Below are positions 2,186-47,589 of a stretch of 64,000 nt of DNA, piece by piece. This stretch comes from Methanobacteriota archaeon (GTDB lineage Archaea; Thermoplasmatota; Poseidoniia; Poseidoniales; Thalassarchaeaceae): NCBI GenBank assembly GCA_002730095.1, contig PBZE01000042.1:623-64622 (forward strand). The letters run 5' to 3'. Positions within the stretch are counted from its first letter, which is position 1. The number at the start of each line of letters is the position of its first letter. The position numbers and the translations under genes were made by a program. The notes under the pieces are model-generated. The model saw only the letters and a list, made by a program, of their open reading frames with translations. It did not search any database and had not been told where the DNA came from.

Positions 2186-3618
2186 TGAAGGTCCTGAACT
2201 ACATCCATGGAGAGTTCATCGAACCCGAATCAGATCATTGGATGGACAATTTATCTCCATCTACTGGAGATGTTATCGGGTCCATTCCCTTATCGGATGA
2301 AAGGGATGTGGGTAATGCGGTATCTGCAGCGGTGGCCGCGCTACCACAATGGAGCGGACTAGAACCATTAGAAAGAGCTGGGTGGCTAGAAAAAATCGCC
2401 GACTGCCTTGAAAGTAAATTTGAAGAAATAGCCTATTTGGAGAGCTTGGATACTGGAAAACCGATTTCTCTATCTAGATCGGTAGATGCAAAAAGGTCTG
2501 TCTCAAACTTCAGATTCTTCTCGGAATTGATTAGAAACTTAGACGAAGAAGTTTTCGAAATGGAAGATGCGACTAACATTGTGAAGCTCAAACCTGTTGG
2601 AGTCGGGGCTTTGATCACCCCTTGGAATCTGCCATTGTACCTGCTATCTTGGAAGGTAGCTCCAGCGATAGGGATGGGAAATACGGTAGTGTGCAAACCT
2701 AGTGAGATGACTCCACTAACTGCCGACTTGCTCATGAAAGTGGTCGACGAGGTGGGCCTCCCCCCAGGAGTGGTAAATCTGGTTCATGGGGATGGTGTCG
2801 CTGGATCCTCACTTACTGGCCATTCCGACGTGGACTTGGTCTCATTCACAGGCGGTACCGAAACTGGGTCGAAGGTAGCGCTATCTGCATCTCCCAAATT
2901 CAAGAAATTGAGTTTGGAGCTAGGTGGCAAGAACGCCAGTATTGTTTTCTCCGATTGCGATATGGAGAAAACCGTAGAGGGAGTAACAAGGGCTGCCTTT
3001 CTGAATCAGGGACAAGTTTGTCTCTGCGGCTCAAGGATTCTTGTTGAAGACTCAATTTATGATGAGTTTGTAGAACTTTTCGTCGATTCGGTGGAATCTA
3101 TGGTGATTGGGGATCCAATGAACGACTCTACACAACTCGGTGCCCTGATATCAAAGGAGCATCTGAAGAAGGTTGAGGGATACATTTCCCTAGCGATAGA
3201 AGAAGGAGGGGAAATCCTCACAGGGGGAGCACCATGTATCCCTAAGGAGCTGTCCGAAGGGAACTGGTTGGCTCCAACAGTGGTCGCTGGCCTTGACCCT
3301 GATTCAAGATGCTCCACCGAGGAAATCTTTGGCCCTGTTGTAACGATTCATCGCTTCGAAGGCGAAGCGCGAGCCGTAGAAATAGCGAATAATACCAGAT
3401 ATGGTCTCGCTGGTAGCGTATGGACTAGTGATCTAGAGAAGGGAGAGAGGGTTGCAGGCATGATCCACACGGGAATGGTTTGGGTGAATACCTGGCTCCA
3501 TAGGGACCTTAGAGTGCCATTTGGAGGAGTCAAGGACAGTGGCATCGGCAGAGAAGGAGGCCGATGGAGCCTGGGGTTCTTCTCGGAGCCACTTAACGTG
3601 TGTCTGAAGCATGAATGA
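2185..3618 (+). CDS. NAD(P)+-dependent aldehyde dehydrogenase
   Basis: ALDH hallmarks are present: ITPWNLPL, ELGGKN (general-base Glu), FLNQGQVCLCGSR (catalytic Cys), EEIFGPV, RYGLAGSVWT. The ATG overlaps the upstream stop (TGATG at 2183-2187). Confidence 0.9.
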   Translation: MKVLNYIHGEFIEPESDHWMDNLSPSTGDVIGSIPLSDERDVGNAVSAAVAALPQWSGLEPLERAGWLEKIADCLESKFEEIAYLESLDTGKPISLSRSVDAKRSVSNFRFFSELIRNLDEEVFEMEDATNIVKLKPVGVGALITPWNLPLYLLSWKVAPAIGMGNTVVCKPSEMTPLTADLLMKVVDEVGLPPGVVNLVHGDGVAGSSLTGHSDVDLVSFTGGTETGSKVALSASPKFKKLSLELGGKNASIVFSDCDMEKTVEGVTRAAFLNQGQVCLCGSRILVEDSIYDEFVELFVDSVESMVIGDPMNDSTQLGALISKEHLKKVEGYISLAIEEGGEILTGGAPCIPKELSEGNWLAPTVVAGLDPDSRCSTEEIFGPVVTIHRFEGEARAVEIANNTRYGLAGSVWTSDLEKGERVAGMIHTGMVWVNTWLHRDLRVPFGGVKDSGIGREGGRWSLGFFSEPLNVCLKHE

Positions 3619-4642
3619 GGGGCAAGACTGTAAGTCTTGGCGATGGTCCGTTGGAATAACCATGGCACCAGTTGGCATCATCGGAGTTGGGTCTTATGTC
3701 CCGCCCAAGGAAATGTCGAATGAAGATTGGTCAAAAATTGTGGATACCAGTGACGAATGGATTTCAACTAAAACAGGGATGAAGAGGAGGAGGATTGCCG
3801 ATCCTTCGGTATGCACGTCTGACTTGGCGGTTGAGGCGTCAAAAATCGCCCTGAGAAACTCTGGACTTTCCCCCTCTGACATTGACTTGATAATTCTGGC
3901 AACTTCGTCCCCTGATGTCCCTCTGTCTTCTACTGCCGGAATAGTTCAACATAAGCTCGGTTGCACAGACTGTGGCGCTTTTGATGTAAATGCAGTTTGT
4001 GCTGGATGGGTTCATGCTTTGGACATCGGTTCCAGGTTCGTAGGAACTAATGGATATGAGAATGTTCTAGTAATTGGCTCGGAAATTTATTCTAGAATCT
4101 TAAATTGGGAAGATAGGTCAACATGCGTTCTGTTCGGCGATGGTGCGGGAGCGGTCGTCCTCTCAGAGGTCCCAGAAGGCAAGGGCGTGATTGGATCTTG
4201 GCTGATGAGTGATGGGTCGGGGGCCCAAGTAATCGAGATTCCTGCTGGTGGAGTCAGGGTCCCAATACCAAGTGAGGGATTCGAAGATGGAATGCAATAT
4301 TTCCACATGGATGGTAGGGCCGTTTGGACATTTGCAATTGAGGCGTTCCCACAGGCCGTACTAGGGGTCCTGGAGAGGTATGGGAAGAGTATTGAGGATG
4401 TGGACCTGATAATACCGCATCAGGCAAATATCAACATCATCAAGGCCGGTATGGAAAATCTAGGATTACCCATGAGTAAGACATTCACCAACCTCCACAA
4501 ATATGGAAATACTGCTGGTGCCAGCGTCCCTATTGCGATGCATGAGGCCATGGAGGATGGTATGATAGTTGAGGGCAGCCTCGTGGTCACTGTTGCCTTT
4601 GGAGGAGGATTAGCATGGGGAGCTAATCTGATCCAATTCTAA
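3611..4642 (+). CDS. beta-ketoacyl synthase III (FabH)-like condensing enzyme
   Basis: The KAS III triad contexts are present: NAVCAGWVHAL (Cys), IPHQANINII (His), GNTAGASVP (Asn). The N-terminus GIIGVGSYVPP is typical. The likely start is ATG 3662 (MAPVGIIG) rather than 3611. Confidence 0.8.
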   Translation: MNEGQDCKSWRWSVGITMAPVGIIGVGSYVPPKEMSNEDWSKIVDTSDEWISTKTGMKRRRIADPSVCTSDLAVEASKIALRNSGLSPSDIDLIILATSSPDVPLSSTAGIVQHKLGCTDCGAFDVNAVCAGWVHALDIGSRFVGTNGYENVLVIGSEIYSRILNWEDRSTCVLFGDGAGAVVLSEVPEGKGVIGSWLMSDGSGAQVIEIPAGGVRVPIPSEGFEDGMQYFHMDGRAVWTFAIEAFPQAVLGVLERYGKSIEDVDLIIPHQANINIIKAGMENLGLPMSKTFTNLHKYGNTAGASVPIAMHEAMEDGMIVEGSLVVTVAFGGGLAWGANLIQF

Positions 4643-7600
4643 TTGTCGATTGGCCCCCATAATCCAGATACTTGATCGAAGGACAGTATTGAGCCATCGG
4701 GATTTTGACAGTAAACCTTGCCCGAGTTATCTACCCAAACCAATTGTCCGTTATCATTCATTTTGGCATCGCTTGGTGCTGTGATTGGCTTTTTCTCATC
4801 TAGGATATCCTTGGACAGGGATGTAGAATTTGGAACTGATACGCTAGAATATATTGTGGTGCTCTTATCATTGTATTCGACTCCTTCTTTTACAGAATTT
4901 GATAGATGCGAAATTTCTTCTTCATCCCCTCTCTTTCTAATAAATAACAGTCCGCCAAGACCCATAATAATCACAATAGAGAATAGTGCAACAAACATTA
5001 GCATTGAAACTTCGTCTTCTTCGACATATCTGTCTGGATCATTAGGGAAAGCATCTCCATTATCACCTACTCCGTCCATATCGGAGTCAACCCACTCGTT
5101 GGGATCGAGTGGGAAGTCGTCTAAACCATCCAAAAATCCATCATCATCTGAGTCTGGGTCGGTAGAACTGGTATTTCTTTGCTCTTCCTGGAGATCTGGA
5201 GATCCATCGTTGTCGTCATCGGTATCAGAATTATCCCCTATTCCATCCAAGTCGTTATCTGACCACTCTGTACTATCTAGCGGAAGGTCATCTTGCAGAT
5301 CCGGGAATCCATCGTTATCATCATCTTCGTCCTCGTCTGAGTCCTTGCACCCATCTGAGTCATTATCCGAATTAGCATCGCTAGACCAATCAGTTAGCCC
5401 CAAGGGGCAACTGTCCTGTAAATCGTTGATTCCATCTCCGTCGTCATCTTGATCAACTTCGTCATGTATCCTGTCTCCATCCGAATCAAGAAGACAATCA
5501 TCGATTGAAATAGCTGCAGATGAGATAGTTATGGTTTTGTCGGGACATGGTTCGGTAGACGAGCTTTTTGAGCTTGGAACATACTCATCAAGAGGTGCGG
5601 CAGTTTGCTCCGATTGACCTGAATTGGGGGCGAAATATCCCGGATCGGTATCTAGGCATGATGTTTGTCCGGGAGTGGGCTGATAGGTTCCTGGCTGACA
5701 GACTTCTTGTGACGAGGAAGCTGTTCCCGAGGAAAAATATCCTGGATCTGAGAGCAGACAGGATGATTGGCCGGGCGAAGACTGGTATTCACCGGGAGCA
5801 CAGGCACTCTGATTTGGAGAGGCATTTAGTGAGACATAGAAACCCGGATCGGCATCTATGCACGAGGCTTGACGAGTCTGATTTTGGAAGGACCCAGCTA
5901 AACATGGAGATTGGGCAGAGGACCCCTGGGAGGAGACATAGTGGCCCTCATCTGACTCCAGACATGATGATTGGTCGGATGCTGAGTCAATTGGATTGTA
6001 GGTACCTATTGGACATGGAGTCTGGCTGGTCGACATAGGCGCATCTACATAGAAACCCGGGTCTGCGGCTATGCAATCCTCCTGGCTCGGCAGCGGCTGA
6101 TATTGTCCCGGCTGACACTCTATCTGATTCACTGAGCCAATTAAATCCGTATAGAAACCGGGATCGGTGCCCATACAGGAAACTTGTCCCGGAGATGGTT
6201 GATACTCTCCAAGAGAACACGGGGTCTGAGAAGATGCACCCAATATCGAAGAAAAATATCCTGGATCTGCTTCAATGCAGGAAGAAGAGCTGTTTCCGGC
6301 TGGTTGAGGATTATATGTCCCTAATTGGCAGGGGATTTGGGATGTCGAGGCATTCTGATCTGTGTAATATCCTGGACTAGCTTCCATACACTCAGAGAGA
6401 CCTGCCTGATTGCCCCAAAATCCGGGTGAACAAGGTGTTTCCGATGAAGCCCCCTCTGAATCAACAAAGTACCCCGGTGAAGCTGGGATGCAGGAAACCT
6501 GGCCGAATGATGGTTGATAATTGCCTTCAGTGCATGGAGTCTGCGTGGAAGACCCATTTGTTGGGACTGCGTGGCCGGGGTCTGCATCGATACAGAATGA
6601 CGAGCTGTTGGCGGACTCCAATGGGTTGTAAGTGCCTGCCGGACAGGGAATTTCTGAGATTGAGCCGGGCAAATCAACATAGTGCCCTCCAGATGCATTG
6701 AAGCATTCTATTGCCCCATAAGAGGGCTGATAGGTACCTGCTTGACAGGGAATTTGCTCTGCAGAAGAGTTAGTGGGCACATGATGGCCAGGCGTTGCCT
6801 GCAGACAGAACGTCTGATTTGAAAGAGGTTGATAGAACCCTGGATCACATCCAATTTGAGCTATACTAGCGGTTCCTGGGACATAGTGCCCTGGACTTGC
6901 GGAAAGGCACGAAGACTGGGCAGATAATGGCTGATAGTAACCCGCAGAACAAGGAGTTTGAGAAGTGGAGTTGTAATTTGCCGCGTAATGCCCGGGAGAT
7001 ACGTCAATACAGTTGGTGGAGCCACTTGATGGTTGATACGTCCCGGGATTACAAGCGGTCTGATTAGTTGATCCCGATACCAGTACGTAGAACCCGGGAT
7101 CTGCAACCAGACAGTTATTTTGTCCGGATGAGGGTTGATAATTTCCAGGGGAGCATTGGGTCTGGGAGGATGCCCCTGAATTGGCGACATAATTCCCGGG
7201 AGATGCGGGAGTCTCGAAGGAAGCTCCATACTGAGGCACATAATTTCCTTGATTGGCCGATAAGCAAGACGATTGTCCAGATAGGGGCTGATAAGTTCCC
7301 GGGACGCATAAGTCCTCAGATGTTGCTCCGACGGTAGAGACATATCTTCCGGGAGATGCCAAATCACAGCTCGCTCTGCCAGTTTTGCCCTGATAGGTTC
7401 CAACTCTGCACTGGAAGAAGCCAATTTGAATCTCGGCATCGATAACCTCGGACTGATTGCCGAGTAATGAAGAGTCTAGAGTAGAGAAAAGACCCACTAA
7501 CATAGTGTAGCTCCCTGTTGATGAATTATTATTGGTGATAGAGATGACGACATTCGATGAATTCGTGAATGTCGTTCCGTTTGTGCTGACAGAAGCAATG

Positions 7601-9954
7601 TTTCCGCCTGAGGTTGAAAAATTGGAGGTTGCCAGCGGTACTGAAGATGCGTCAGATATACTGAGTGAAAAATTCGAGGGAGAGGTAAGTTCCAGGAAAA
7701 GGCCGTAATCCCTCGGTACGAAAATTGAAAATGAGTCGCCGGTATCATTGGACCAACTCAGATTTCCAATCTGTCCCATGTATGTGGAGCTTCGGGACTG
7801 GAGAGGGGTCGGGATTACACTATCTGCATCGCCGTACTGTCCATTTGTGTAATTCCCGACAGGAGATTGGATACATGAGGCCTGAGCCAAAGAGGGTTGG
7901 TAGTAGCCCGGATCGCAATGTTGCTGATTGGCAGAGCCCGAAGATGGAACAAAATATCCACTAGATGATTGATAGCATATGCTCTGCCCTTGCTCTGGTT
8001 GGTATGTTCCTGCTAAACAAGCTTCGTGAAATAGTGCCCCTTCTAGAGAATAATGGCCCGAAGGGGACAGATAACATGACAGTCTGCCCCATTGCCCTTC
8101 GGGGCAGTTGTTCCATCTCGCGGGATTGTTCGGGAAATCGTCCACAGAAGAGTTGAAGCCATCGCCATCTGAATCATTGGTGACATTCAAATCTAAGACG
8201 TTACGTATTCCATCTCCGTCCAAATCTTGATCTGAAAATGCGACTGATTCTCCCAGAGTGGTGTTGTTGAAGTTCATCAGATATGGTATCAGAATATTAT
8301 CTGACGATCCATCAAATTCCCCCGATTGGCCGCCCCAGCAAAATAGAGAATAGCTCTGGTTAATTGCACATGTGGATTGTGGCCCAGTAGCTATTGCTAT
8401 CGCATTTGAAGGCATTAGGGCATACGAAGGGACGTTTCCATCTGCTCCTGAGCATGCATTGGTGCTAGCGCTACAAGTGCCGTCCCCCCATTGTCCGTGG
8501 GTATTTACACCCCAGCAGCTAATCGATCCATTGTCCAGGAGGGCGCATGTGTGCCAGTATTTTCCATCGATATCCACAGCTGATCTATCGGAAGGTATCT
8601 GGATTAGCACGGAGTCTTCAGTGACTTGCCCATTGAGCGTGGAAACGGTGTAGGACTTCCCCCAGCAGCTAATTGATCCATTTTCGAAGATGGCGCATGT
8701 ACTATACCCCGTAGTAGAGATTGATGAGGCCATCATTCCGGTGGAGTGGTTAGCAACAACGGGGGAATTTGTACTGATTGTTGAGCCGTCTCCCAGATTT
8801 CCGTAGCCATTGAAACCCCAACACTTCACAGCCCCATTATCCAAGACTGCGCAACTGAAGTCATTGCCTGCAGATATTGATGTCGCCGTCCTACCTACCC
8901 CGAGGTCCACAGAAACTGGATAGTTCCTATTTGTGTTCGATCCATCGCCAAGTTGGCCATGATTGTTCCTCCCCCAGCATCTAACCGAAGCATCATCAAG
9001 AATGGCGCAATTGTGATTGTTTCCGTCGGATATGGCCACTGGTGTCCTAGTTCCGAAGTCCACCGACCCATTGGATAGCGAATTTGAGCCGATCCCTAGC
9101 TGGCCATAGTTATTCGTACCGCTGCATCTTAGTGTCCTGTTGTATAGAATCGAGCAGGGGCCTGCTTTCGAAATTACATCGTCTCCTGTTATCACTGGTA
9201 CTCCGGTGCTATTGAATGTGACAATGCTACCGTTAGACAAAACTATACTTGGAGAATCCGAATGAATTTCCAAGGATGAGTAACTGAATACTGAGCCTCT
9301 ATCTGAACCTGGCTGGTTTAGGCCTAATTTATTCACCTCTGGACCGGTCACGGGAGAAGAAGTAGCTTCCGAGATAGTCCATGAATCAGCCCCCCACGAG
9401 TCTCCAGAGGCCCCCCCGTCTCCGTTAACTAGATTCACTGCCATGTAGAATACTACATCTCCCGACCCCGATGAAGGGGCGATCCAGTCCACTGACCATG
9501 AACGTGAGTTGGAATTTGAATGTGTGACCTCTCCAGAGGAAATTCTCGCATTGGAACCTGGATTGGTGAAGGATCCTAGGTTGGAGTCTAGATTGAATCC
9601 CCCTTTAGTACCACTTGGACCGCCTGATGCAGAGGCCGTCAGAGAGTATGTGACTCCTGGATCATATCCGCTCGAAGGCAATCCAGTGAGACTAGGAGTG
9701 ACTGAGGGAGTGGTTGAGGAATGGCATGATCCGGCCCCACAACCATCGGTGGAACCGGTTTTTCCTGAACTGTAAGCGAAGGCTGTCTCTGGTACTGCCA
9801 TAAGAATGAGCATGAACAGAGTACCAATTATTATTATTCTAGATTTTGTCACAGAATCCCCCAAAAAATCAGCTCCATTTTCGATGAACAGATACTCGCA
9901 TCTGTCTCTCTCGATATTTAGCGCCACTGAAGACAATATGACTATTCCTACCAA
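4639..9954 (-). CDS. Giant type-I membrane-anchored surface protein with RCC1-like, ephrin-receptor-like Cys-rich and TSP3-like Ca-binding repeats
   Basis: A probable GTG start at 9852 gives the signal peptide MTKSRIIIIGTLFMLILMAVPETAFA. It is followed by a beta-rich N-domain containing CGAGSCH and about 6 RCC1-like blades (CWGxNxxGQLGDGS). Next come two blocks of PGxYQPxxGQxSC / PGxYVxxxGxxSQxxC units and DxDxDGxxDxxD repeats. One TM helix (nt ~4944-5003) is followed by RKRGDEEE and a ~115-aa tail. Confidence 0.8.
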   Translation of the reverse strand: MVGIVILSSVALNIERDRCEYLFIENGADFLGDSVTKSRIIIIGTLFMLILMAVPETAFAYSSGKTGSTDGCGAGSCHSSTTPSVTPSLTGLPSSGYDPGVTYSLTASASGGPSGTKGGFNLDSNLGSFTNPGSNARISSGEVTHSNSNSRSWSVDWIAPSSGSGDVVFYMAVNLVNGDGGASGDSWGADSWTISEATSSPVTGPEVNKLGLNQPGSDRGSVFSYSSLEIHSDSPSIVLSNGSIVTFNSTGVPVITGDDVISKAGPCSILYNRTLRCSGTNNYGQLGIGSNSLSNGSVDFGTRTPVAISDGNNHNCAILDDASVRCWGRNNHGQLGDGSNTNRNYPVSVDLGVGRTATSISAGNDFSCAVLDNGAVKCWGFNGYGNLGDGSTISTNSPVVANHSTGMMASSISTTGYSTCAIFENGSISCWGKSYTVSTLNGQVTEDSVLIQIPSDRSAVDIDGKYWHTCALLDNGSISCWGVNTHGQWGDGTCSASTNACSGADGNVPSYALMPSNAIAIATGPQSTCAINQSYSLFCWGGQSGEFDGSSDNILIPYLMNFNNTTLGESVAFSDQDLDGDGIRNVLDLNVTNDSDGDGFNSSVDDFPNNPARWNNCPEGQWGRLSCYLSPSGHYSLEGALFHEACLAGTYQPEQGQSICYQSSSGYFVPSSGSANQQHCDPGYYQPSLAQASCIQSPVGNYTNGQYGDADSVIPTPLQSRSSTYMGQIGNLSWSNDTGDSFSIFVPRDYGLFLELTSPSNFSLSISDASSVPLATSNFSTSGGNIASVSTNGTTFTNSSNVVISITNNNSSTGSYTMLVGLFSTLDSSLLGNQSEVIDAEIQIGFFQCRVGTYQGKTGRASCDLASPGRYVSTVGATSEDLCVPGTYQPLSGQSSCLSANQGNYVPQYGASFETPASPGNYVANSGASSQTQCSPGNYQPSSGQNNCLVADPGFYVLVSGSTNQTACNPGTYQPSSGSTNCIDVSPGHYAANYNSTSQTPCSAGYYQPLSAQSSCLSASPGHYVPGTASIAQIGCDPGFYQPLSNQTFCLQATPGHHVPTNSSAEQIPCQAGTYQPSYGAIECFNASGGHYVDLPGSISEIPCPAGTYNPLESANSSSFCIDADPGHAVPTNGSSTQTPCTEGNYQPSFGQVSCIPASPGYFVDSEGASSETPCSPGFWGNQAGLSECMEASPGYYTDQNASTSQIPCQLGTYNPQPAGNSSSSCIEADPGYFSSILGASSQTPCSLGEYQPSPGQVSCMGTDPGFYTDLIGSVNQIECQPGQYQPLPSQEDCIAADPGFYVDAPMSTSQTPCPIGTYNPIDSASDQSSCLESDEGHYVSSQGSSAQSPCLAGSFQNQTRQASCIDADPGFYVSLNASPNQSACAPGEYQSSPGQSSCLLSDPGYFSSGTASSSQEVCQPGTYQPTPGQTSCLDTDPGYFAPNSGQSEQTAAPLDEYVPSSKSSSTEPCPDKTITISSAAISIDDCLLDSDGDRIHDEVDQDDDGDGINDLQDSCPLGLTDWSSDANSDNDSDGCKDSDEDEDDDNDGFPDLQDDLPLDSTEWSDNDLDGIGDNSDTDDDNDGSPDLQEEQRNTSSTDPDSDDDGFLDGLDDFPLDPNEWVDSDMDGVGDNGDAFPNDPDRYVEEDEVSMLMFVALFSIVIIMGLGGLLFIRKRGDEEEISHLSNSVKEGVEYNDKSTTIYSSVSVPNSTSLSKDILDEKKPITAPSDAKMNDNGQLVWVDNSGKVYCQNPDGSILSFDQVSGLWGPIDN
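5600..7430 (-). repeat. About 17 tandem bipartite Cys-delimited units (~34-37 aa each), ephrin-receptor-like / GCC2_GCC3-like (coding)
   Basis: Short units (C-xPGxYQPxxGQxSC) alternate with long units (xxxxPGxY/FVxxxGxxSQxxC) from FQCRVGTYQGKTGRASC to CQPGTYQPTPGQTSCLDTDPGYF. I counted the units by hand. A smaller block of the same type lies at ~7850-8110. Confidence 0.7.
8300..9170 (-). repeat. RCC1-like beta-propeller blade repeats (coding, inside the giant gene)
   Basis: The peptide motif recurs as LRCSGTNNYGQLGIGS, VRCWGRNNHGQLGDGS, VKCWGFNGYGNLGDGS, ISCWGK, ISCWGVNTHGQWGDG and LFCWGG. On the + strand the DNA shows repeated ccccagca(g/t)ct near 8335, 8511, 8663, 8818 and 8972. Confidence 0.75.
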
Positions 9955-9961
9955 TTGTACT

Positions 9962-11755
9962 TCAGTGGGTCGTTACGAATACCTCTGACGCAAACGGGGG
10001 CATCTCCAATTCGGATTCAGAGAATGCTTCTTCGACGGAATCGAAATGACCTTGGCCATTCCTAATCCTAATTGCCCTGGTGCTGACAATCCTCCAAGAG
10101 GACTTCGCGCCTATTCCAGGGAGGGCTTCCAACTGGTTCCTTGTGGCAGAATTGATATCTATCCCACACTCAATGCCCGATATACTCCTCATCCCATGAG
10201 ATGTGACTAAAATATCGGATTCTGTCTCCAGCGGTATGGCATATGGCACCCCCACTAGTAATGGATATGCCCCAATCTGTCTCCCAAATGTTACTCCTGG
10301 AGAACCACGAATGGATGGCTGTGTGAATTTCTTATCCAGAACGTGTTCAGGCAGTCTAATCCTGCCCTCCCTAGATTCCCACCATACTGCTGAAAGTTTA
10401 GTACCTACAGGGGCGATTTCCTTGAGCATTGGCCTGTCGATTTCCTCCCTTACAGATTCTTTGAAACTCCTGAATTCAGTCTCTGGAATATCCTGAAATC
10501 CCTTGCCTTCGACTTGTCTGATATTTATTCTTCTAAGCCATAGTCCTTCTGACTTAATTTGTCTTAGAAGCTGAAGATTGAGGTCGTATGTGACCCGAGA
10601 CTCACCGTTCAGACCAGCAATGAAATTGAGTCCTGGCAAGAGTTTGGGCAGGCCCCTTGGGCCCCTCTCCCTTCCATATTCATTGATGTGCCTTATGGCA
10701 GTTTTCAGCTGCATCGGGTCGCAATTGAGCCAATTAGCATGATGAACTTCCGGATCTGCTGATTCCAAACCGAAAGAAAGCACCGCACCGTCTGAAAGAT
10801 TAGAGACGAGCTGTTTGGTAATTTCTGTTGAAGGCTCGATGTTCTGAGCAATAATTGAGGGATTTGCATTATCCACATGCAATATTTCGAGTGACTCATT
10901 TTCTCTTGCGCTGTTTAGTACCTTTGAAATGGGCTCTGGATTGGGAATTGGGTACTCCAAATCCTCGACCCCTTCGGCACGATAGGTGTAGATATCGGTA
11001 GCCCCGCCGATTCTTACATTGACCACTCCTGAGTCTATTGCTGCGTTTATCTCCTTAATGACGTCGGATTCTTCCCTCCAGAGAGGGAGCCCCTTCTTGG
11101 GCTCTATGCAGAATTTACACCCTCTCTTGAATCTGACACAGCCTTGGTAAAGCTCGATTTCGTATATCAGAGGGCCGCGCACACCGCCATGAGATGTTAT
11201 GTCGGGATGATCAGTTACTGCCTTTGATCCTGCTCCTTTCAAAGCCCATTTTGACCATTGGTCCGATGTTCTCTTCGTATGTGACCAAATTCCTGTCGAG
11301 AGGAAGTGGTTTAGGGTGGCGTCGGTATCTTTTACTGTGCAGAAAAGGTTCTTTCTTGGAGAAATCCAACCGGACTGTCTCCAATGTCTGATTGCCCATC
11401 CCCCACATAGTACTGGAACGATTGAGGGGATGGAAGAAAGTATTGCGTCTACTTCCCTCAGACTAATTGGGGTCCCTCTAATGTATTTCCCTGGGACCAC
11501 GGCGCCAGCAAGGATGATGGCCCCCTCTAAATTCTTCATCTCATTCCTGATTGAGCTTCTTCCATCTGAAGTCTCTAGCTTGGATTTGTATGACCTTCTC
11601 CATTGATCAACTGTCATGTACGTGTATTCAATGGCCCTCTCCTCTAACACTCCGCAGATATATCTTACATGAAACCCCACATAATTTGGAACTCCGAATG
11701 CCGCAGGCTCATCCTCGTAACCATCGATTACGAGCCAACCGCCTGACTCGTCCAT
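9962..11755 (-). CDS. Radical SAM-like Fe-S enzyme with C-terminal helix-hairpin-helix (COG1031-type), function unknown
   Basis: It has the Cys cluster YQGCVRFKRGCKFCIEP and a C-terminal HhH (RNQLEALPGIGAKSSWRIV). This architecture is the one described for the archaeal 'radical SAM with C-terminal HhH' group. Confidence 0.6.
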   Translation of the reverse strand: MDESGGWLVIDGYEDEPAAFGVPNYVGFHVRYICGVLEERAIEYTYMTVDQWRRSYKSKLETSDGRSSIRNEMKNLEGAIILAGAVVPGKYIRGTPISLREVDAILSSIPSIVPVLCGGWAIRHWRQSGWISPRKNLFCTVKDTDATLNHFLSTGIWSHTKRTSDQWSKWALKGAGSKAVTDHPDITSHGGVRGPLIYEIELYQGCVRFKRGCKFCIEPKKGLPLWREESDVIKEINAAIDSGVVNVRIGGATDIYTYRAEGVEDLEYPIPNPEPISKVLNSARENESLEILHVDNANPSIIAQNIEPSTEITKQLVSNLSDGAVLSFGLESADPEVHHANWLNCDPMQLKTAIRHINEYGRERGPRGLPKLLPGLNFIAGLNGESRVTYDLNLQLLRQIKSEGLWLRRINIRQVEGKGFQDIPETEFRSFKESVREEIDRPMLKEIAPVGTKLSAVWWESREGRIRLPEHVLDKKFTQPSIRGSPGVTFGRQIGAYPLLVGVPYAIPLETESDILVTSHGMRSISGIECGIDINSATRNQLEALPGIGAKSSWRIVSTRAIRIRNGQGHFDSVEEAFSESELEMPPFASEVFVTTH

Positions 11756-11780
11756 GTATATGCGGTCGAGTGCCTAGCCT

Positions 11781-13085
11781 TCACCGCTTCGACTGCCTTC
11801 TAGATTTGCCCCTATCCCTTCCGGAGCCGTTTGGAGATGATTCCTCTACTACGATCTTCCTTCCATTGATCTCTGAGCCATTCATTGCTTTGATTGCTCC
11901 GGAGCCTTCTTTTCGGGATTGGAATGTTATGAAAGCGAAGCCCTTGGACTTTCCAGAATCCTTGTCTTTAGCAAGATGTACTGATTCAATCTTGCCGTAT
12001 TTGGAGAATACCTCTGATAGGTCATCCTCTGAAAATTCATATGGAAGTCTCCCAATGAATAGTTTCATGCCCATGGACTCTTCGAGCTTACTTCTCATCT
12101 TGGAGATGGCCTCTCTCTCCTTAGATAGCTCCTCCCTGGTTGCCTTGCCTTGCTTTACCTTGTCCATGCAGTCCCTACACCTAATTGGTTTACCAGGGGT
12201 GGGCTTGAATGGGACTTTGGTTTTCTCCCCACAGAGGGTACAGACGGTTTCGTGCATCTCCCTCTTAGGTCGACTGGGGCCCCTAGAGCCACCTCTTCCC
12301 GAGGACCTCATGGAAGCAACCCTAGCTGGAATCTCATGACTGGCCCCCCTGCGGAAATCAGCGAGAGGTGACAGGTAAGGCCTAGATCCATCGTGGCTGA
12401 GATTGGATTCAGCCTCTGGAGACCATCGCTCCCCTGCACGATTCAATTTATCGAGCCCGAACCCTGTCTCATGACCATGGCCGAATCCATCTGATAATAC
12501 CCTATATGCAGTGTAGTCACATCTCGAACATTCTACATTGAAATCGATTTTCTTATCTGAAACATCTAGGATGAATCCACAAGCTGGACATGACGCAGAT
12601 AATACACCTAGTGATTTGTTTCCTTTGGTTGAGGCCTTTAGGATAGGATCATCCTTGATTATCTTGGCCCTGACAATATCCCTCATCCTCATTGCATCCC
12701 CCGGAGCAGGGATGAATCTATCCACCACTTCAGAGACATGGATGTCTGCGAAGAGGTTCAATGCTGGGAGGTCCCTGTGACCTCCATCCTTACTTTCTAT
12801 ATTGAGGATTCTTATTTCTGCTACATTCTCATTCAGCCTGGTGACCTGGCCAATTACGATATCGTCAACTTGAGGAGAGTTAATCGGTAGTCTGGAAGGC
12901 TCGATGGAGATGCTGCCATTGCCATCGACAACAACCCCAGTCAGGGTTGAGATAGATCGCCCATTGACCTCGATGATACCGTTCCCGGCCGAGGATCCTT
13001 TTGGGACAATTACTGTGGCCCCGGGTGTAACTTGGTCTCCAACCGTCGCTGACATTGGCATGGCGACCGGCCGACCACCTATCAA
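11781..13085 (-). CDS. csl4: Exosome cap subunit Csl4 fused to an RG-rich linker, a CxxC-x17-CxxC zinc knuckle and an RRM domain
   Basis: aa 1-200 have the Csl4 layout: an N-domain, an S1-like fold (DDIVIGQVTRLNENVAEIRI) and a Zn-ribbon (CPACG...CSRC). aa 260-275 are RG-rich. aa 282-306 read CTLCGEKTKVPFKPTPGKPIRCRDC. aa 340-415 form an RRM with RNP-2 (LFIGRL) and RNP-1 (KGFAFITF), followed by a basic tail. The upstream neighbour is the predicted RNA methylase that is conserved next to csl4 in archaea. Confidence 0.75.
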   Translation of the reverse strand: MIGGRPVAMPMSATVGDQVTPGATVIVPKGSSAGNGIIEVNGRSISTLTGVVVDGNGSISIEPSRLPINSPQVDDIVIGQVTRLNENVAEIRILNIESKDGGHRDLPALNLFADIHVSEVVDRFIPAPGDAMRMRDIVRAKIIKDDPILKASTKGNKSLGVLSASCPACGFILDVSDKKIDFNVECSRCDYTAYRVLSDGFGHGHETGFGLDKLNRAGERWSPEAESNLSHDGSRPYLSPLADFRRGASHEIPARVASMRSSGRGGSRGPSRPKREMHETVCTLCGEKTKVPFKPTPGKPIRCRDCMDKVKQGKATREELSKEREAISKMRSKLEESMGMKLFIGRLPYEFSEDDLSEVFSKYGKIESVHLAKDKDSGKSKGFAFITFQSRKEGSGAIKAMNGSEINGRKIVVEESSPNGSGRDRGKSRRQSKR

Positions 13086-13097
13086 CGGTACGGAGCC

Positions 13098-13712
13098 CTA
13101 CGGAGGAGATAATCTCCAAAAACCAGCCCTTGTTGACCCTCTTGTCTTCTTGTGATGAGCGTAAGATGCGGGAATCGGGAAATCGGCCTCGCCGTACTTC
13201 TCGACATTCCACCCCATATTCTCAAATCTATTTTTTATGTGTTGAGCATCGGAGCTGTGCATCAAATGGGCAGTCACCCCTAAAGTCGAAATTAAATCCA
13301 AGAAATGGGAATCTGCACCTTCAGTTTGACGCCCCCATGGAGGATTTGATATGACCAAGTCAATATTACTTAGATCGGGGTCTTCTTTCCCTATCTCGAT
13401 ATTCATAATTTCGTAACTTCCAGCTTGGAGAGTGCTCTCAGAATTTTTTGCAATCAGTTTGCACATTTCTTGATCAACATCGATGAAGGTGACAAAACCT
13501 GCGCCCATAATTGCAGCGCCAATTCCTAGAATCCCATTTCCTGCTCCCAAATCTGCTATTCTGCACCCAGGCGAAATATCGCCAAACGCCCTGATGTCAG
13601 ATAGCCATCTTGAAGCGATTTCCCCCGGAGTAAAATACTGTTCGAGTGAAGAATCAGGATTCTCATTTAGGTCTAGCTTAGAGAGGGTGATCGCAAGTCT
13701 CCGTAACCTCAC
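13098..13712 (-). CDS. SAM-dependent methyltransferase (COG2263 / METTL5-like, NPPW type)
   Basis: It has SAM-binding motif I (IADLGAGNGILGIGAAIMGA) and the amino-methyltransferase motif IV (VISNPPWG). It is adjacent to csl4, as in the predicted archaeal exosome superoperon. Confidence 0.75.
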   Translation of the reverse strand: MRLRRLAITLSKLDLNENPDSSLEQYFTPGEIASRWLSDIRAFGDISPGCRIADLGAGNGILGIGAAIMGAGFVTFIDVDQEMCKLIAKNSESTLQAGSYEIMNIEIGKEDPDLSNIDLVISNPPWGRQTEGADSHFLDLISTLGVTAHLMHSSDAQHIKNRFENMGWNVEKYGEADFPIPASYAHHKKTRGSTRAGFWRLSPP

Positions 13713-22356: not shown

Positions 22357-25300
22357 TTGGGATTATACAGCGTCGGCAATTGGCTCTCTAAGAGAGCCAT
22401 GGCAAGAGCGTCAACTTCACTAACTCCAGTCCTCGTTTCTTTGATGCTTCTCATGCTCGATGTTTCTATCGCAGTGAGTGGCAATGACTGGGAAATCGAA
22501 GATGGGACGGAGTCTGGCGATTCTTCGGACATTGGCTACGCTGACAAAATTCCTGCGCTGATGTGCGGGAGTGAAGAATGTCCAGAGAAAGACAGGTCGC
22601 CTTATCTCCCTCCAAATGATGTTGAATGGCCGGTTCAGGAACCGGGTTGGTGGTTTAACTTCTGGAATGACAAGGACGGTAATGGGATGGATGATCGTTT
22701 ACAGTGGATAATTTCCGGAGAGAGAGATTCCGTCTCGACCAGTGCCATTATGGGAACTGATGGAAGAATGACTGTGGCTATTTTTGTCTGTTACTCGTGG
22801 CATCCCGGCGAATCAGATGTAGCTCGACTGAAGGAGGTTCTTTCGAACCACGGGTGGGATGAATTCGAGACCTACTTCCGAACAGTTGACATTCTGGACA
22901 CAATAATTGTCGAGCATGTCCCGGTGAGTTCATTAATTGATATCCTGATGCTTGAGGGAGTAGTTCTAGTTGAGCAGCAAGATGTCCTCGTACCTTATCT
23001 GAATACAGCCACCAAGGGATCCAAAGTCAGGTCCTCAGACATATTTTCAGAGACTATGATGGATTATGGATACGATGGTTCAGGAGTTGTAATCGCGATA
23101 GCGGACACAGGTGTTGATAATGAGCATTTTTCATTAGATGATTTCTCTGATGACAACACTGACAATGAAGCAGAGCCGGACGAATTACCGGATCCTAAAT
23201 GGGTGGCCGGATGTGATTCGACATCATGGAATCAACAAGATTGTGATGATGGGGCAGACGATCCTGATGATGGGGACGGCCATGGGACTCACGTTGCTGG
23301 TATCGCTCTTGGGACAGGGGGGCCAGATAGGGAAAATCAGGGTTATGCGCCAGGCGCATATTTGGTTGATATCAAAGTCATGACAGATGCAGGCGCATCC
23401 AATTCCGGCTACACGGTGGCAGGTATTAACTGGGCAGTACAGAATGTCGATACTGATTGGGGGAATAATGACTCTAGCAGAGGGATTGACATTCTATCAA
23501 TGTCATTCGGCAGTGGCTCGAATCCAGCAGGAGGAGAGGACCCGGGAGACAATGGAACCAGTCAGGATTCTTTGGCCGTTAATGCTGCATCTGAAGCAGG
23601 TATTGTTTGTGTCGCCGCGATTGGTAATGATGGGTACCGAAGAGTCACTTCAGTGGGAGCGGCGGACTCTGCCATTACCGTGGGCTCTATCGATGACAAG
23701 GCTAGTATCGAAAGAGGCGATGACTCAATCTCATCTTTTTCTAACTCGGGACCTAGGGAAGATGATGGCGATGATAATGAATGGGACGAGCTCAAGCCAG
23801 ATGTTGTAGGGCCTGGCTCGAACATAATGTCAGCGCAGCATGCCGCCTCAAGTTCTTCCCTCCCCGGCTCTGCTAAACCATTGGCAAGTGATAATTACGT
23901 TCAGAAGTCAGGAACAAGTATGTCGACTCCAGCAGTGGCTGGATTTATTGCGGCGATGCTGCAGATGGATGAAGACCTGACTCCTCAAGAAGTAAAGGAT
24001 ATACTACGAAATAACTCTGAAACTAGAGGTGGTTCGTCGGCTCCGGAGATCACCGAAAGGTGGAATGATCAGTATGGTTTTGGGATTATTGACGGCGAAA
24101 TGGTGATGCAGGCAATTCTGGGCGACAACAATGGAGGAGGAGATGGAAATGATACGACTCCACCGCCCACAGGTACTGAGGAGTGGGTGATTATTGAAAC
24201 GCCTGAGGAGGACTCATGGCTTGTAGAGGGAGAAACGTATAGTGTTCGTGGCCACATCGATGAAGATGCCGATACAAATGGGACTATCGAAGAGGTGAAC
24301 GTCAGTATCTCGTATAGATATCGGCCAGAAGAAGGCCCGAGACAGACTGCTATTTTGGTTGACTGGCATGTAGTACAGGGGACTCTTAATTGGTCGACGC
24401 CCTTTTCCATCCCTGAATTCACAGAGGATGAGATCGATGTGGAAGACATAATCATCAAGGTGAAGGCCAGGAATGAGTTCAACGTATGGAGTGAAATGGA
24501 GCAAAGTGAACATCCAGTCGGCTTGGTTGAAGTTAGTCTTGGAGGCCCCAGTGGACAAAGTCCGGTATCGGGAAATACGAATATTTTCGGTGGATGGGAG
24601 TCAGTAAATGGTGGAGAAATTCAATGGAGGCTGGGAACTGATGAATGGGAGACTGCTGAGCAATTTGGAGGATCCGGAAGTAGCTCAGGAGATTGGTCGG
24701 TTAGTTGGGACACTAGATCAGTAAACGATGGATTCTACCGCATATCAGTAAGGGTAGTGAGTGGAGATGGAATTTTCTCAGAGGAGGTCAGAAGGACTGT
24801 AGAAGTGGATAACGACCCCCCTGCCCCAGACCTTATTTTCCGAAGTGGGATAACGATTAGTGAATATGGCTTACCTATTGCTGAAACCTATGTTAACACA
24901 TTCCTTGAAGTCAGTTGTGAAGTGAGAAATGACGGCGACTTAGATGCGACTGAGGTCACCATTTATCTCAAGGAAAATGGGGCTAGGAAAGACGAAGTCG
25001 TCATCCCAAGTATTGGCAGCGGGGACATAGTAGAAATTGTTCTGTATTGGAATCCTCTCAGCCTAGGAGATCGCTCACTTACAGTATCCTTAGATCCAAC
25101 AAATGAAATTGACGAGATAAATGAGGGGGACAACGAGCAGACTGCGGAGTTTCCAGTACTGGAAAGGCCCCAAGGGGTCGATTTATCATTTAGAGAGGGA
25201 GCAGTCAGGACCGAGCCTCCGGTTCCGAGGCCTAATGAACAATTTTTGATCACTGCCAGAGTGGATAACTTGGGTTCGAGTGACGCTAGGGATATTGAAG

Positions 25301-42768: not shown

Positions 42769-47460
<4,692 letters not shown>

Positions 47461-47502: not shown

Positions 47503-47589
47503 GCGGCAGTCGCATAGCCTGGCCATTGCGCTGGATTGCTAATCCAGTGGTGTTTCACCTCGGGAGTTCGAATCTCCCCTGCCGCGCCA
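47503..47589 (+). tRNA. tRNA-Ser (anticodon GCU), CCA encoded
   Basis: I hand-folded the cloverleaf. The 7-bp acceptor stem is GCGGCAG/CTGCCGC. The anticodon stem is CTGGA/TCCAG with loop TTGCTAA. There is a long variable arm (GGTG-TTT-CACC). The T-arm is GGGAG-TTCGAAT-CTCCC, followed by discriminator G and CCA. Confidence 0.9.

Follow-up and report, generated by a model that had tools for sequence, protein, structure and literature searches.

Introduction

The archaeal exosome serves as a model for the origin of the eukaryotic exosome, and the way in which archaea choose its substrates is poorly understood. To our knowledge, all accessory proteins of the archaeal exosome, i.e., DnaG, aRNase J and Nop5, act in trans, two of them (DnaG and aRNase J) via the cap subunit Csl4. 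DnaG docks at the C-terminal zinc-ribbon domain of Csl4. The C-terminal domain of Csl4 is also the docking site of aRNase J (PMC7144898), and the same article and the supplement of PMC7414124 describe that DnaG, which enters the cap through Csl4, boosts the binding of A-rich RNA in other archaea. Canonical archaeal Csl4 (e.g., AF_0206 of A. fulgidus, PDB 2ba1/3m7n; NF034126, COG1096/arCOG00676) has about 180–200 aa and ends with ...YGKG. The Csl4 protein that is analyzed here has the same three-domain body and the same COG2263 methylase neighbor, but it carries about 230 additional residues, and the common part is only about 25–35% identical.

Several known systems are comparable to this extended Csl4 in one respect and differ from it in another. 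DnaG adds RNA binding to the cap via Csl4, but it is a separate polypeptide with a Toprim domain and has neither an RRM nor a zinc knuckle. The eukaryotic adaptor NEXT combines the RRM of RBM7 and the zinc knuckle of ZCCHC8 with MTR4, and TRAMP contains the zinc knuckles of Air1/2. In these adaptors RRM and/or zinc-knuckle modules bring RNA to the exosome, as is proposed here for extended Csl4. However, NEXT and TRAMP act in trans, are centered on a helicase and use CCHC knuckles, whereas the modules of extended Csl4 are covalently attached and the knuckle is of the prokaryotic CxxC-x17-CxxC type, and the likeness would be an analogy, without evidence of common descent. In bacterial PNPase, the RNase PH-type ring carries KH and S1 domains at the C-terminus of its own subunit. 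RNA-binding domains are thereby held covalently over a phosphorolytic ring, as would be the case here, but they differ in kind (KH and S1) and are fused to the catalytic ring subunit, not to a cap subunit. The closest free-standing relatives of the modules are small bacterial RRM proteins (Rbp type, with a Gly-rich tail) and the CxxC-x17-CxxC proteins of M. mazei, which are single-domain proteins, in contrast to the fused modules of extended Csl4. Otherwise, RRMs are considered to be largely confined to bacteria and eukaryotes.

Results

The Extended csl4 Gene Occupies the Ancestral Methylase-csl4 Locus

The analyzed DNA, called the window below, is a stretch of 64,000 nucleotides from an archaeon of the Thalassarchaeaceae. 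It contains a csl4 open reading frame at positions 11781..13085 of the minus strand, which is initiated by TTG, comprises 434 aa and has no internal stop (stop codon 11781–11783). It was thereby confirmed that a single unbroken reading frame runs from Csl4 through to the RRM, as had been noted in a preliminary description of this DNA. The true start is likely an ATG at 13061 or 13055, because homologues start with the Met that corresponds to one of these codons. The residue numbers given below for the domains count from the Met at 13061 (Met9), while those of profile matches refer to the 434-aa frame. The order of the parts is Csl4, a post-ribbon segment, an RG-rich tether, a zinc knuckle, a helical connector, an RRM and a K/R-rich tail, and the added half of the protein has a net charge of +18. 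An ORF of 262 aa on the opposite strand (11551..12339, plus strand) was taken as a shadow ORF, as there was no evidence in its support.

Immediately upstream of csl4, where the preliminary description had placed the conserved partner methylase, a METTL5/COG2263-type methyltransferase with an NPPWG motif is indeed encoded (13098..13712, minus strand); its PDB matches are PH1948 (3e-21), human METTL5 (1e-20) and also Ta1320. The downstream gene (9962..11755, minus strand), which starts 25 nt past the csl4 stop, encodes a radical-SAM protein (COG1031/arCOG01359) that has a helix-hairpin-helix at its C-terminus. The COG1031 and COG2263/arCOG00910/K07579 typing of the two neighbors follows the orthologues of SIMO Bin 19-2, as listed in supplement 4 of PMC9723583. 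The order methylase, csl4, radical-SAM gene is kept among relatives. The methylase adjoins csl4 in all variant loci except L006, in which a GtrA gene intervenes and the methylase lies one gene further, and the radical-SAM gene follows in L001–L006, L008, L009 and L091–L093, but not in L007. In another archaeon (locus L094), a COG2263-type methylase adjoins a canonical short csl4. The methylase-csl4 arrangement is the ancestral locus, and it is occupied by the fused gene. No rrp4, rrp41 or rrp42 gene was found in the 64-kb window or in the neighborhoods of the variants.

The N-Terminal Part Is a Complete Csl4

The N-terminal approximately 197 residues are a complete Csl4, consisting of the N-domain, the S1 domain and a zinc ribbon with four Cys, so that the assignment of the first 200 or so residues in the preliminary description was borne out. 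The N-terminal domain (Rpl27-like/ECR1_N-type, aa 1–60, 12882..13061, minus strand) was delimited by the NF034126 alignment and modeled by AF2 with pLDDT values of 87–96; its residues P13, G14, G26, G28 and G42 are invariant, and this is likewise the case in canonical Csl4. The S1/OB domain (aa 61–150, 12612..12881, minus strand) was identified by profile, AF2 and Foldseek, and 30 of its 90 alignment columns are invariant. The C-terminal zinc ribbon (CPAC...CSRC; aa 151–197, 12471..12611, minus strand) was assigned by alignment with canonical Csl4. Its ligands C158, C161, C178 and C181 do not vary among 64 homologues, and it terminates with GFGHGH at the point where canonical Csl4 proteins stop.

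The NCBIfam equivalog profile for Csl4, NF034126, matched aa 18–201 over profile positions 2–178 of 180 with 93.2 bits, by a narrow margin above the cut-off of 90. A profile of the family matched the A. fulgidus Csl4 chain 2ba1_A with E = 3.9e-57, spanning chain residues 2–178 of 179, and human Csl4/EXOSC1 (6h25_I, 6d6q_I, 2nn6_I) with E values of about 3e-24. An AF2 model of aa 1–250 (pLDDT 89, pTM 0.76) had 2ba1_A as its best Foldseek match (E = 2.3e-14), and archaeal, yeast and human exosome Csl4 chains ranked above Rrp4 and Rrp40. The clade is divergent: identity to A. fulgidus Csl4 is about 29%, and canonical Csl4s reach at most 70 bits against it. Methanonatronarchaeum was among the organisms with the closest canonical Csl4s.

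A Conserved Segment and a Variable Tether Follow the Zinc Ribbon

The zinc ribbon is followed by a clade-specific segment of aa 198–246 (12324..12470, minus strand), which was recognized by its conservation among all variants of the extended protein, irrespective of whether they carry a zinc knuckle plus an RRM, two RRMs, one RRM or two zinc knuckles. Its consensus is LNRxGxRWSxEAExxLxHDGxRPYLSPxADxRRGxxHExP. With 21 of 49 columns invariant and a dN/dS of 0.019, it is one of the most strongly conserved regions of the whole protein. AF2 modeled residues 198–220 against the Csl4 body with pLDDT values of 91–95, and residues 221–250 with low confidence. Because of the high conservation and the confident modeling of the first half, these approximately 50 residues are not a loose linker, and residues 221–246, which are invariant yet poorly modeled, may be a region that binds a partner.

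The RG-rich flexible tether proper spans aa 247–266 (12264..12323, minus strand) and includes SSGRGGSRGPSRPKR. No column is invariant, but its composition is kept (18–30 residues, 29% R/K, 23% G), and its AF2 pLDDT is below 50. Thus, of the RG-rich linker that had been described initially the RG stretch stood, while the approximately 50 residues after the zinc ribbon had wrongly been taken as part of a plain linker.

The Cassette Joins a Zinc Knuckle to an RRM with a Basic Tail

The zinc knuckle (TIGR04272/PF23477 zf_Tbcl_2) covers aa 267–302 (12156..12263, minus strand). Both profiles matched it above their cut-offs, at aa 275–310 of the 434-aa frame (TIGR04272 with 51.8 bits versus 36, PF23477 with 50.8 versus 27). 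The Cys-to-Cys core CTLCGEKTKVPFKPTPGKPIRCRDC was found at exactly 12168–12242 (minus strand), the position given for it in the preliminary description, and the 17-residue spacer was verified in the sequence. C274, C277, C295 and C298 are invariant in the 64 homologues, and the pLDDT of the model is about 78–85. Two members of the CxxC-x17-CxxC family from M. mazei were found by ICP-MS to bind zinc (PMC12704099). The csl4 knuckle is a predicted zinc-binding element.

A helical connector (aa 303–331, 12069..12155, minus strand) leads from the knuckle to the RRM; AF2 modeled helices at residues 296–303 and 309–329 with pLDDT values of about 82–85, and the connector is moderately conserved. The RRM, with the RNP-2 motif LFIGRL and the RNP-1 motif KGFAFITF, comprises aa 332–406 (11844..12068, minus strand), and its location within nt 11841–12068 had been given correctly before. 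Profile support is strong: Pfam RRM_1 (PF00076) matched aa 342–411 of the 434-aa frame with 74.9 bits versus a cut-off of 20.7. E values against RRMs of the PDB go down to 7e-38, for a PABP chain with four RRMs. Residues 332–407 were modeled as beta-alpha-beta-beta-alpha-beta with pLDDT values of 82–87, and Foldseek of the RRM in the full-length model revealed RBM39, CIRBP, HuR and Fox1 with target-normalized TM scores of 0.90–0.95 and an rmsd of about 1 Å. F335, F375 and F377 are invariant in the 64 homologues. From its intact RNP motifs, the RRM is expected to bind single-stranded RNA.

The C-terminal tail (aa 407–426, 11784..11843, minus strand) is basic, as had been noted, with 45% R/K and 3% D/E across the 64 homologues, and it is modeled as disordered. 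The pTM of the full-length AF2 model is 0.30, and therefore the model is uninformative about the placement of the arm and the inter-domain geometry. All three named domains, i.e., Csl4, zinc knuckle and RRM, exceed curated cut-offs, and the initial domain reading as a whole, including the linker, the tail and the neighboring methylase, is upheld by profile, fold and comparative evidence. All eight zinc-ligand Cys and the RNP aromatics are invariant in the 64 homologues, and chance is therefore not a viable source of the extension, as judged by comparison of the sequences.

The Extension Is Conserved Throughout Poseidoniia and Is Modular

More than 120 full-length fused relatives with 55–100% identity were found, which stem from independent samples and assemblers and lie on independent contigs of up to 337 kb. 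The dN/dS values per region were 0.02–0.08 in comparison with the closest relative (L091), and at the junction, where the two are 94% identical at the amino-acid and 82% at the nucleotide level, the value was 0.017; usable dN/dS values could be obtained from the 84% relative alone, because relatives with 78–80% identity are saturated at synonymous sites. These substitution patterns indicate that the added half is under purifying selection in the same polypeptide.

A survey of csl4 architectures in relatives had been suggested in the preliminary description, which had not foreseen how widespread the fusion is. In the genomes compared, the C-terminal extension is clade-wide in Poseidoniia (marine group II), and it is modular. 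The labeled members of the variant found in the window, with zinc knuckle plus RRM, are Thalassarchaeaceae, while those of the variant with two RRMs include Poseidoniaceae. In other variants the post-ribbon segment is followed by one RRM or by two zinc knuckles plus RGG repeats. The two-RRM proteins of Poseidoniaceae and of other Poseidoniia/Thermoplasmatota MAGs belong to the same clade; they share the post-ribbon segment and the C-terminal RRM, the methylase neighbor (mostly adjacent) and, in most cases, the radical-SAM gene downstream. In contrast, they have an RRM in place of the zinc knuckle, their Csl4 part is 30–47% identical to that of the window protein, and their C-terminus is formed by a conserved S(K/R)RE-x-x-A-x-x-EEG peptide, whereas the latter ends in the K/R tail. 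Cassettes have been exchanged among families (ZnK+RRM, RRM+RRM, ZnK+ZnK+RGG), which suggests that selection acts on tethered RNA affinity in general, perhaps with preferences that differ by lineage.

Outside of Csl4, the RRM is most closely related to RRM proteins of bacteria that stand alone and have about 90–160 aa, with 38–47% identity. The profile of the bacterial Rbp-type RRMs, NF058537, yielded 81.9 bits, below its cut-off of 100, so that the domain is similar to this family without being a member. The mean RRM identity is 38–39% between Csl4 variants and 39–41% to bacterial RRMs, over a domain of 75 residues and with a retrieval-biased bacterial set. That set had been retrieved by an RNP-1 motif search of species contigs, in which only three csl4 loci (L010–L012) were recovered. 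A ready-made bacterial cassette of zinc knuckle and RRM was considered and rejected: the longer tblastn matches (L014, L064, L076 and L087) consist of an RRM and a Gly-rich tail and have no knuckle.

Exosome Genes Are Encoded and Transcribed in a Related Genome

The co-occurrence of the fused gene with Rrp41, Rrp42 and Rrp4 rests on a published annotation table for the Thalassarchaeaceae MAG SIMO Bin 19-2 (PMC9723583, supplement 4). According to this table, the MAG has SDO1-rrp4-rrp41-rrp42 and dnaG with transcript coverage in a field metatranscriptome, and it carries K03679, K11600 and K12589 together with the RRM-bearing K07573 gene. The latter is a COG1096 csl4 gene of 1,270 nt with a Pfam RRM match, located between the COG1031 and COG2263 genes. 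It is the single COG1096 entry among the rows listed for this MAG, and its Prokka name is csl4_1. Its transcripts are given there with 0.03–0.13 CPM, versus 1.6–3.9 for rrp41 and rrp4. The supplements of Rinke et al. contained nothing on rrp4, rrp41 or rrp42.

Discussion

We consider it fairly probable that the gene encodes the Csl4 orthologue of the Thalassarchaeaceae type (marine group IIb), which is C-terminally extended across Poseidoniia and would be assembled into the exosome cap with RNA-capturing arms. The most likely function of the extension would be that of a tethered RNA-capture arm on the cap, and the earlier proposal that the cap gains an extra built-in surface for RNA recruitment seems reasonable. 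Through its Csl4 part, the protein would join the trimeric cap that covers the ring of Rrp41 and Rrp42, and the post-ribbon segment would pack on the peripheral zinc-ribbon side, which is the docking side of DnaG and aRNase J in other archaea. An arm of zinc knuckle, RRM and basic tail would thereby be flexibly attached to each Csl4, at a position over the S1 pore or next to it. Such arms could catch 3′ regions of single-stranded RNA and would thereby raise the local substrate concentration, and they would probably bias the choice of substrates for phosphorolytic decay or tailing. In principle, the arms would act as the KH/S1 domains do in bacterial PNPase, and as DnaG or the eukaryotic adaptors with RRMs and zinc knuckles do, but they would act in cis.

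For a more far-reaching version we see a modest chance, namely that Poseidoniia have built adaptors for substrate selection into the cap subunit, as an analogue in cis of the RRM and zinc-knuckle adaptor complexes of eukaryotes, that the post-ribbon segment is a new interface on the zinc-ribbon hub of Csl4, which repositions or regulates the docking of DnaG or aRNase J, and that the cassette swaps (ZnK+RRM in Thalassarchaeaceae, RRM+RRM in Poseidoniaceae, ZnK+ZnK+RGG elsewhere) correspond to different specificities of decay or tailing.

It is unlikely that the fused protein is instead a free-standing RNA-binding protein or chaperone with S1, zinc-knuckle and RRM domains, which has no role in the cap and perhaps exists beside a canonical Csl4. 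The divergence of the clade would fit such a protein, i.e., the approximately 29% identity to A. fulgidus Csl4, the NF034126 score barely above the cut-off and the at most 70 bits of canonical Csl4s, and so would two entries in the SIMO Bin 19-2 table, the transcript level below that of the core exosome genes and the suffix in csl4_1, which hints that this MAG has another gene named csl4. However, the fused gene takes the ancestral place of csl4 next to the methylase gene, and all three Csl4 domains are kept, including N-terminal PG and GxG motifs that are shared with canonical Csl4 and have no obvious role outside of the complex. In addition, the best fold matches are Csl4 chains from assembled exosomes, only one COG1096 entry is present among the table rows listed, and in an exhaustive search for homologues no short Csl4 that was intact exceeded about 35% identity.

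Just as unlikely is the possibility that an internal start before the RRM additionally yields a small, free, Rbp-like RRM protein, so that the fusion would partly reflect gene packing. Most homologues have a Met directly before the RRM (MGxKLF), internal starts of just this kind occur among the gene calls of annotation pipelines, and the nearest relatives of the RRM outside of Csl4 are the small free-standing bacterial proteins described above. On the other hand, this Met is not invariant, and no promoter-like A/T-rich box was seen upstream of it when the sequence was read by eye. Moreover, the tether, the knuckle and the connector, which precede it, are under strong purifying selection in frame, and thus the full-length product is certainly made.

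It is quite improbable that the cassettes have taken over from DnaG as the RNA-binding accessory that is bound to Csl4 in the cap. DnaG docks on Csl4 and enhances the binding of A-rich RNA elsewhere (PMC7144898; supplement of PMC7414124), and the extension is attached at the zinc-ribbon domain, which is required for aRNase J binding (PMC7144898), but the Thalassarchaeaceae MAG SIMO Bin 19-2, according to its table, still encodes and transcribes an arCOG04281 DnaG beside the fused csl4 (PMC9723583).

The probability that a chimeric join, a missed stop or a frameshift fused csl4 with a separate zinc-knuckle/RRM gene is close to nil. Some database entries look split: three GenBank MAGs list a 115-aa “RNA-binding protein”, L090 has a Csl4 of 277 aa with two RRM fragments behind it, and there are many short Csl4-like fragments. 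But the full ORF of 487 aa is intact in L006, where the 115-aa call begins at an internal Met, L090 comes from long reads with many errors and its neighboring genes are broken up as well, the short matches finish in out-of-frame junk, and both the more than 120 full-length homologues and the selection at the junction are at odds with an artefact. The split-gene candidates P0289/P0291 and P0138 were accordingly rejected as gene-calling or indel artefacts, and the short Csl4 matches of high identity as frameshifted or truncated fragments. As these two apparent cases are artefactual, a natural stop between csl4 and the RRM is found in none of the orthologous loci.

Returning to the extended Csl4, this fusion is present in databases and yet seems never to have been described in the literature. 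No description of the architecture was known to the preliminary description, and this held insofar as no paper on a Csl4 with an RRM was found in the literature on the archaeal exosome, on CxxC-x17-CxxC proteins and on Poseidoniales, with subscription journals thinly covered; it did not hold for databases, as IMG, PGAP and one supplementary table flag the fusion in part, without discussion. Hundreds of entries of the window type are labeled only “CxxC-x17-CxxC domain-containing protein” or “hypothetical”, and some two-RRM versions are labeled “nucleolin” or are cut to a 115-aa “RNA-binding protein”. Because of such labels, surveys by product name could score Csl4 as absent from such genomes.

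The Poseidoniia are the most abundant planktonic archaea of the ocean, and they are uncultured. In this ecologically dominant class, RRM and zinc-knuckle modules have been joined to Csl4 and swapped between families, and if the arms capture RNA for the exosome, they would represent a natural experiment in adaptor evolution.

Results

The csl4 Gene of the Window Encodes an Extended Csl4

The extended csl4 ORF (11781..13085, minus strand) comprises 434 codons and has no internal stop. As judged from homologues, its start is likely the ATG at 13061 or 13055, and residues were counted from the Met at 13061. The preliminary description had proposed that Csl4, a CxxC-x17-CxxC element and an RRM are fused in this ORF, and each module was confirmed with curated profile libraries. 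The NCBIfam Csl4 equivalog model NF034126 scored 93.2 bits (cut-off 90) and spanned amino acids 18-201 of the ORF. The zinc knuckle (12168-12242, minus strand) was recognized by TIGR04272 (51.8 bits, cut-off 36) and Pfam PF23477 (50.8 bits, cut-off 27), and the RRM (11841-12068, minus strand) by Pfam RRM_1 (74.9 bits, cut-off 20.7); the nucleotide coordinates originally proposed for both were exact. The proposed RG stretch and basic tail were likewise confirmed. Zinc binding has been demonstrated for the CxxC-x17-CxxC zinc-knuckle family (PMC12704099). Across 64 aligned homologues there was no variation at the eight zinc-ligand cysteines (four of the Csl4 ribbon, four of the knuckle) or at the RNP aromatics F335, F375 and F377. 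The net charge is -4 for the Csl4 body and +18 for the added half. There is very little doubt about the identity and the architecture of the extended Csl4.

A profile of clade and canonical Csl4 sequences matched A. fulgidus Csl4 (PDB 2ba1_A) over residues 2-178 of 179 (E = 3.9e-57) and human Csl4/EXOSC1 chains at about 3e-24, and direct BLASTP of the window protein against AF_0206 yielded 29% identity (E = 3e-12). Residues 1-250 were modeled with AlphaFold2 using a deep alignment (mean pLDDT 89, pTM 0.76), and Foldseek matched the model best to Csl4 chains from exosomes of archaea, yeast and human, ranking these above Rrp4 and Rrp40. Its equivalog score, fold, cysteines, locus and co-occurrence with the exosome core all place the extended protein in the Csl4 family.

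Canonical Csl4 ends with YGKG, at the position of GFGHGH in the window protein. The following region of about 50 residues, LNRxGxRWSxEAExxLxHDGxRPYLSPxADxRRGxxHExP, is invariant in 21 of 49 columns, a conservation on par with that of the S1 domain and the Zn ribbon. It had at first been taken as part of a linker, a reading that holds solely for the RG tether: the true flexible tether is confined to the next 18-30 residues, which have no invariant column and a conserved composition (29% R/K, 23% G). In the AlphaFold2 model residues 198-220 form two short helices with the Csl4 body (pLDDT 91-95). Residues 221-250 were modeled with low confidence, though residues 221-246 are highly conserved, and because of this combination the latter may represent a partner-binding motif.

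The region coding for the RRM and the zinc knuckle is overlapped by a 262-aa ORF on the other strand (11551..12339, plus strand), which was treated as a mere shadow of the minus-strand gene, itself strongly conserved. In the last 20 csl4 codons (11784..11843, minus strand), a very small sample, dS versus the relative at locus L093 was only 0.30, while the remainder of the gene was saturated; the low value may reflect signals that serve the next gene, whose start lies 25 nt further on.

The Fused Gene Occupies the Ancestral csl4 Position

As had been noted, a methylase gene lies directly upstream (13098..13712, minus strand). PDB matches identified a METTL5/COG2263-type methyltransferase (P. 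horikoshii PH1948, 3e-21; human METTL5, 1e-20; T. acidophilum Ta1320). The order RmuC/asd – methylase – extended csl4 – radical-SAM/HhH – giant RCC1 surface protein was kept down to 56% protein identity. At L094, a locus of another archaeon with a canonical 197-aa Csl4, the order is diphthamide synthase – methylase – csl4 – rpoL. The L094 methylase is collinear with that of the window (E = 3e-20, NPP[FW]G motif), indicating that the fused gene resides at the ancestral csl4 position.

The downstream gene (9962..11755, minus strand) encodes a radical-SAM protein of COG1031/arCOG01359 that carries a helix-hairpin-helix at its C-terminus. It follows extended csl4 at loci L001-L006, L008, L009 and L091-L093, L007 being the sole exception among the Poseidoniia loci examined; at L094 rpoL takes its place. 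At L092 the start of the COG1031 gene and the csl4 stop share 4 nt (4275-4278). The COG1031 proteins of the window and L008 are 60% identical, the Csl4 parts of the same two lineages about 30-36%.

Three giant proteins of the window are predicted to be surface or secreted proteins: a 1771-aa protein with RCC1-like repeats, many Ephrin_rec_like repeats and an acidic Asp-rich region (4639..9954, minus strand), which lies in synteny with csl4 at L001 and L092, a 1608-aa protein with subtilase and CARDB domains (22357..27183, plus strand) and a 1370-aa protein with PKD repeats (36649..40761, plus strand). DNA gyrase B and A (42801..47460), tRNA-Ser(GCT) (47503..47589) and SufC (28386..29198), all on the plus strand, are ordinary housekeeping genes that fit a Thermoplasmatota chromosome.

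No exosome ring subunit is encoded within the 64-kb window. The Thalassarchaeaceae MAG SIMO Bin 19-2 contains an SDO1-rrp4-rrp41-rrp42 operon (K03679, K11600, K12589) and arCOG04281 DnaG, both with transcript coverage, and a 1,270-nt COG1096/arCOG00676/K07573 "Csl4" gene with a Pfam RRM match, located between COG1031/arCOG01359 radical-SAM/HhH and a COG2263/arCOG00910 "putative methylase" (PMC9723583 supplement 4). This is the arrangement of the window. The Prokka suffix _1 usually implies that another call in the genome bears the same gene name. The fused gene of SIMO Bin 19-2, gene 1120, carries the Prokka name csl4_1, and neither csl4_2 nor a second COG1096 was among the rows listed for this MAG (PMC9723583 supplement 4).

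The Fusion Is Clade-Wide and Its Cassettes Vary

In a search of 5.8 billion proteins, full-length relatives numbered more than 120. They are 55-100% identical and 388-479 aa long (417-479 aa in nearly all cases), and every one has both zinc-knuckle and RRM Pfam matches. They stem from ENA, JGI, NCBI, Logan and Tara assemblies with contigs of up to 337 kb. Versus the closest relative with DNA (84% identical), dN/dS was 0.02-0.08 in regions with estimable dS; more distant pairs were saturated at synonymous sites. At nt 12240-12480, where a chimeric join had been feared, dN/dS was 0.017 (94% amino-acid and 82% nucleotide identity), which speaks against an artefact.

Both apparent split genes were rejected. 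A 115-aa "RNA-binding protein" called in three GenBank MAGs (L004 650..997, GCA_012964315.1; L005 938..1285, GCA_012965585.1; L006 2787..3134, GCA_012965105.1; e.g., HIA39672.1) covers only the last 115 codons, its start being a Met inside a much longer Csl4-RRM-RRM frame. At L006 this 487-aa frame is unbroken (1671..3134), and at L004 it stays open almost to the end of the contig. The 277-aa Csl4 of L090 derives from an error-rich long-read assembly with fragmented neighbors and is directly followed by two RRM fragments. Other short high-identity Csl4 matches end in out-of-frame junk.

When the Csl4 part alone served as query in an exhaustive HMMER search, all intact matches of at least 95 bits were long (387-487 aa), and shorter entries at this level were fragments or frameshifted calls. 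A sharp break separated them from the matches below 70 bits, which were for the most part ordinary Csl4 proteins, about 185-200 aa long, of unrelated archaea such as Methanonatronarchaeum. The C-terminal extension is thus a clade property with interchangeable cassettes. The post-ribbon segment is common to all long Csl4 proteins, and the cassettes differ after it: zinc knuckle plus RRM (window type; labeled members Thalassarchaeum, Poseidoniia, Poseidoniales), two RRMs (Poseidoniaceae, Poseidoniales, Thermoplasmatota), a single RRM, or two zinc knuckles followed by some 120 residues of RGG repeats. An example of the last is protein P0129 (L007 10001..11383, on a 3.0-Mb contig), with two CxxC-x17-CxxC knuckles, an RGG/GGR tail of about 120 residues and no RRM. 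The window-type knuckle aligned at the RRM1 position of the two-RRM type. In the window type the C-terminal tail is 45% K/R, and the conserved acidic/basic C-terminal peptide S(K/R)RE-x-x-A-x-x-EEG of all other variants (P0121, P0123, P0126-P0129, P0134, P0135, P0141; loci L006-L009, L012) is absent; this peptide may be a short docking motif.

The closest free-standing RRM relatives were small bacterial RRM/Gly-rich proteins (38-47% identity), and no zinc knuckle-RRM cassette was present among the bacterial relatives found. The bacterial Rbp model of NCBIfam scored 81.9 bits, under its cut-off of 100. RRM identity was 38-39% between Csl4 variants and 39-41% to the bacterial set, neither being closer. 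A free-standing 86-aa RRM of an Archaeoglobus MAG (JACDNU010000016.1, L021 521..781), 46-47% identical to the window RRM, shows that RRM genes occur sporadically in other archaea. Accounts of eukaryogenesis trace RRMs to bacteria, in keeping with how scarce they are in archaea (PMC9887622).

Discussion

In other archaea, the C-terminal zinc-ribbon domain of Csl4 is needed for aRNase J binding (PMC7144898), and DnaG joins the cap via Csl4 (PMC7144898; PMC7414124 supplement). It is fairly probable that the extension is a cap-mounted arm for RNA capture. The Csl4 body would mount on the Rrp41-Rrp42 ring and the extension would exit from the zinc-ribbon domain, so that every cap Csl4 would bear a leashed arm of knuckle, RRM and tail. 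This arm would capture single-stranded RNA and feed the S1 pore, raising RNA affinity and perhaps biasing substrate choice, and the invariant, poorly modeled residues 221-246 may bind a further partner.

That the extended Csl4 acts instead as an exosome-independent RNA-binding protein is improbable. The same small chance is given to an additional free RRM product from an internal start, which would be compatible with the capture arm. A replacement of DnaG by the cassettes is slightly less probable still, as DnaG is present alongside fused csl4. An artefact of assembly or gene calling is virtually discounted by the numerous fused relatives from different assembly sources, the retained gene order, the invariant cysteines and aromatics, and the dN/dS across the junction.

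The extended Csl4 resembles PNPase with its cis KH/S1 domains, DnaG and the eukaryotic NEXT/TRAMP adaptors with their RRMs and zinc knuckles in principle, but is a member of none of them. The architecture is already in public databases and is partly recognized by pipelines: some two-RRM versions are named "Csl4" by PGAP and some orthologues "nucleolin" by IMG, while the window type is labeled only "CxxC-x17-CxxC domain-containing protein" or "hypothetical". Csl4 and RRM appear together in one row of one supplementary table (PMC9723583 supplement 4), and the gene is unmentioned in the main text of that paper. No paper found describes or discusses the architecture, subscription journals being largely outside the search.

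The 115-aa and "nucleolin" mis-annotations could make Csl4 seem missing in gene-content surveys. Although not a new kind of system, the extended Csl4 comes as a clean surprise to the archaeal RNA-decay field, one that holds across the clade and lends itself to experiment.
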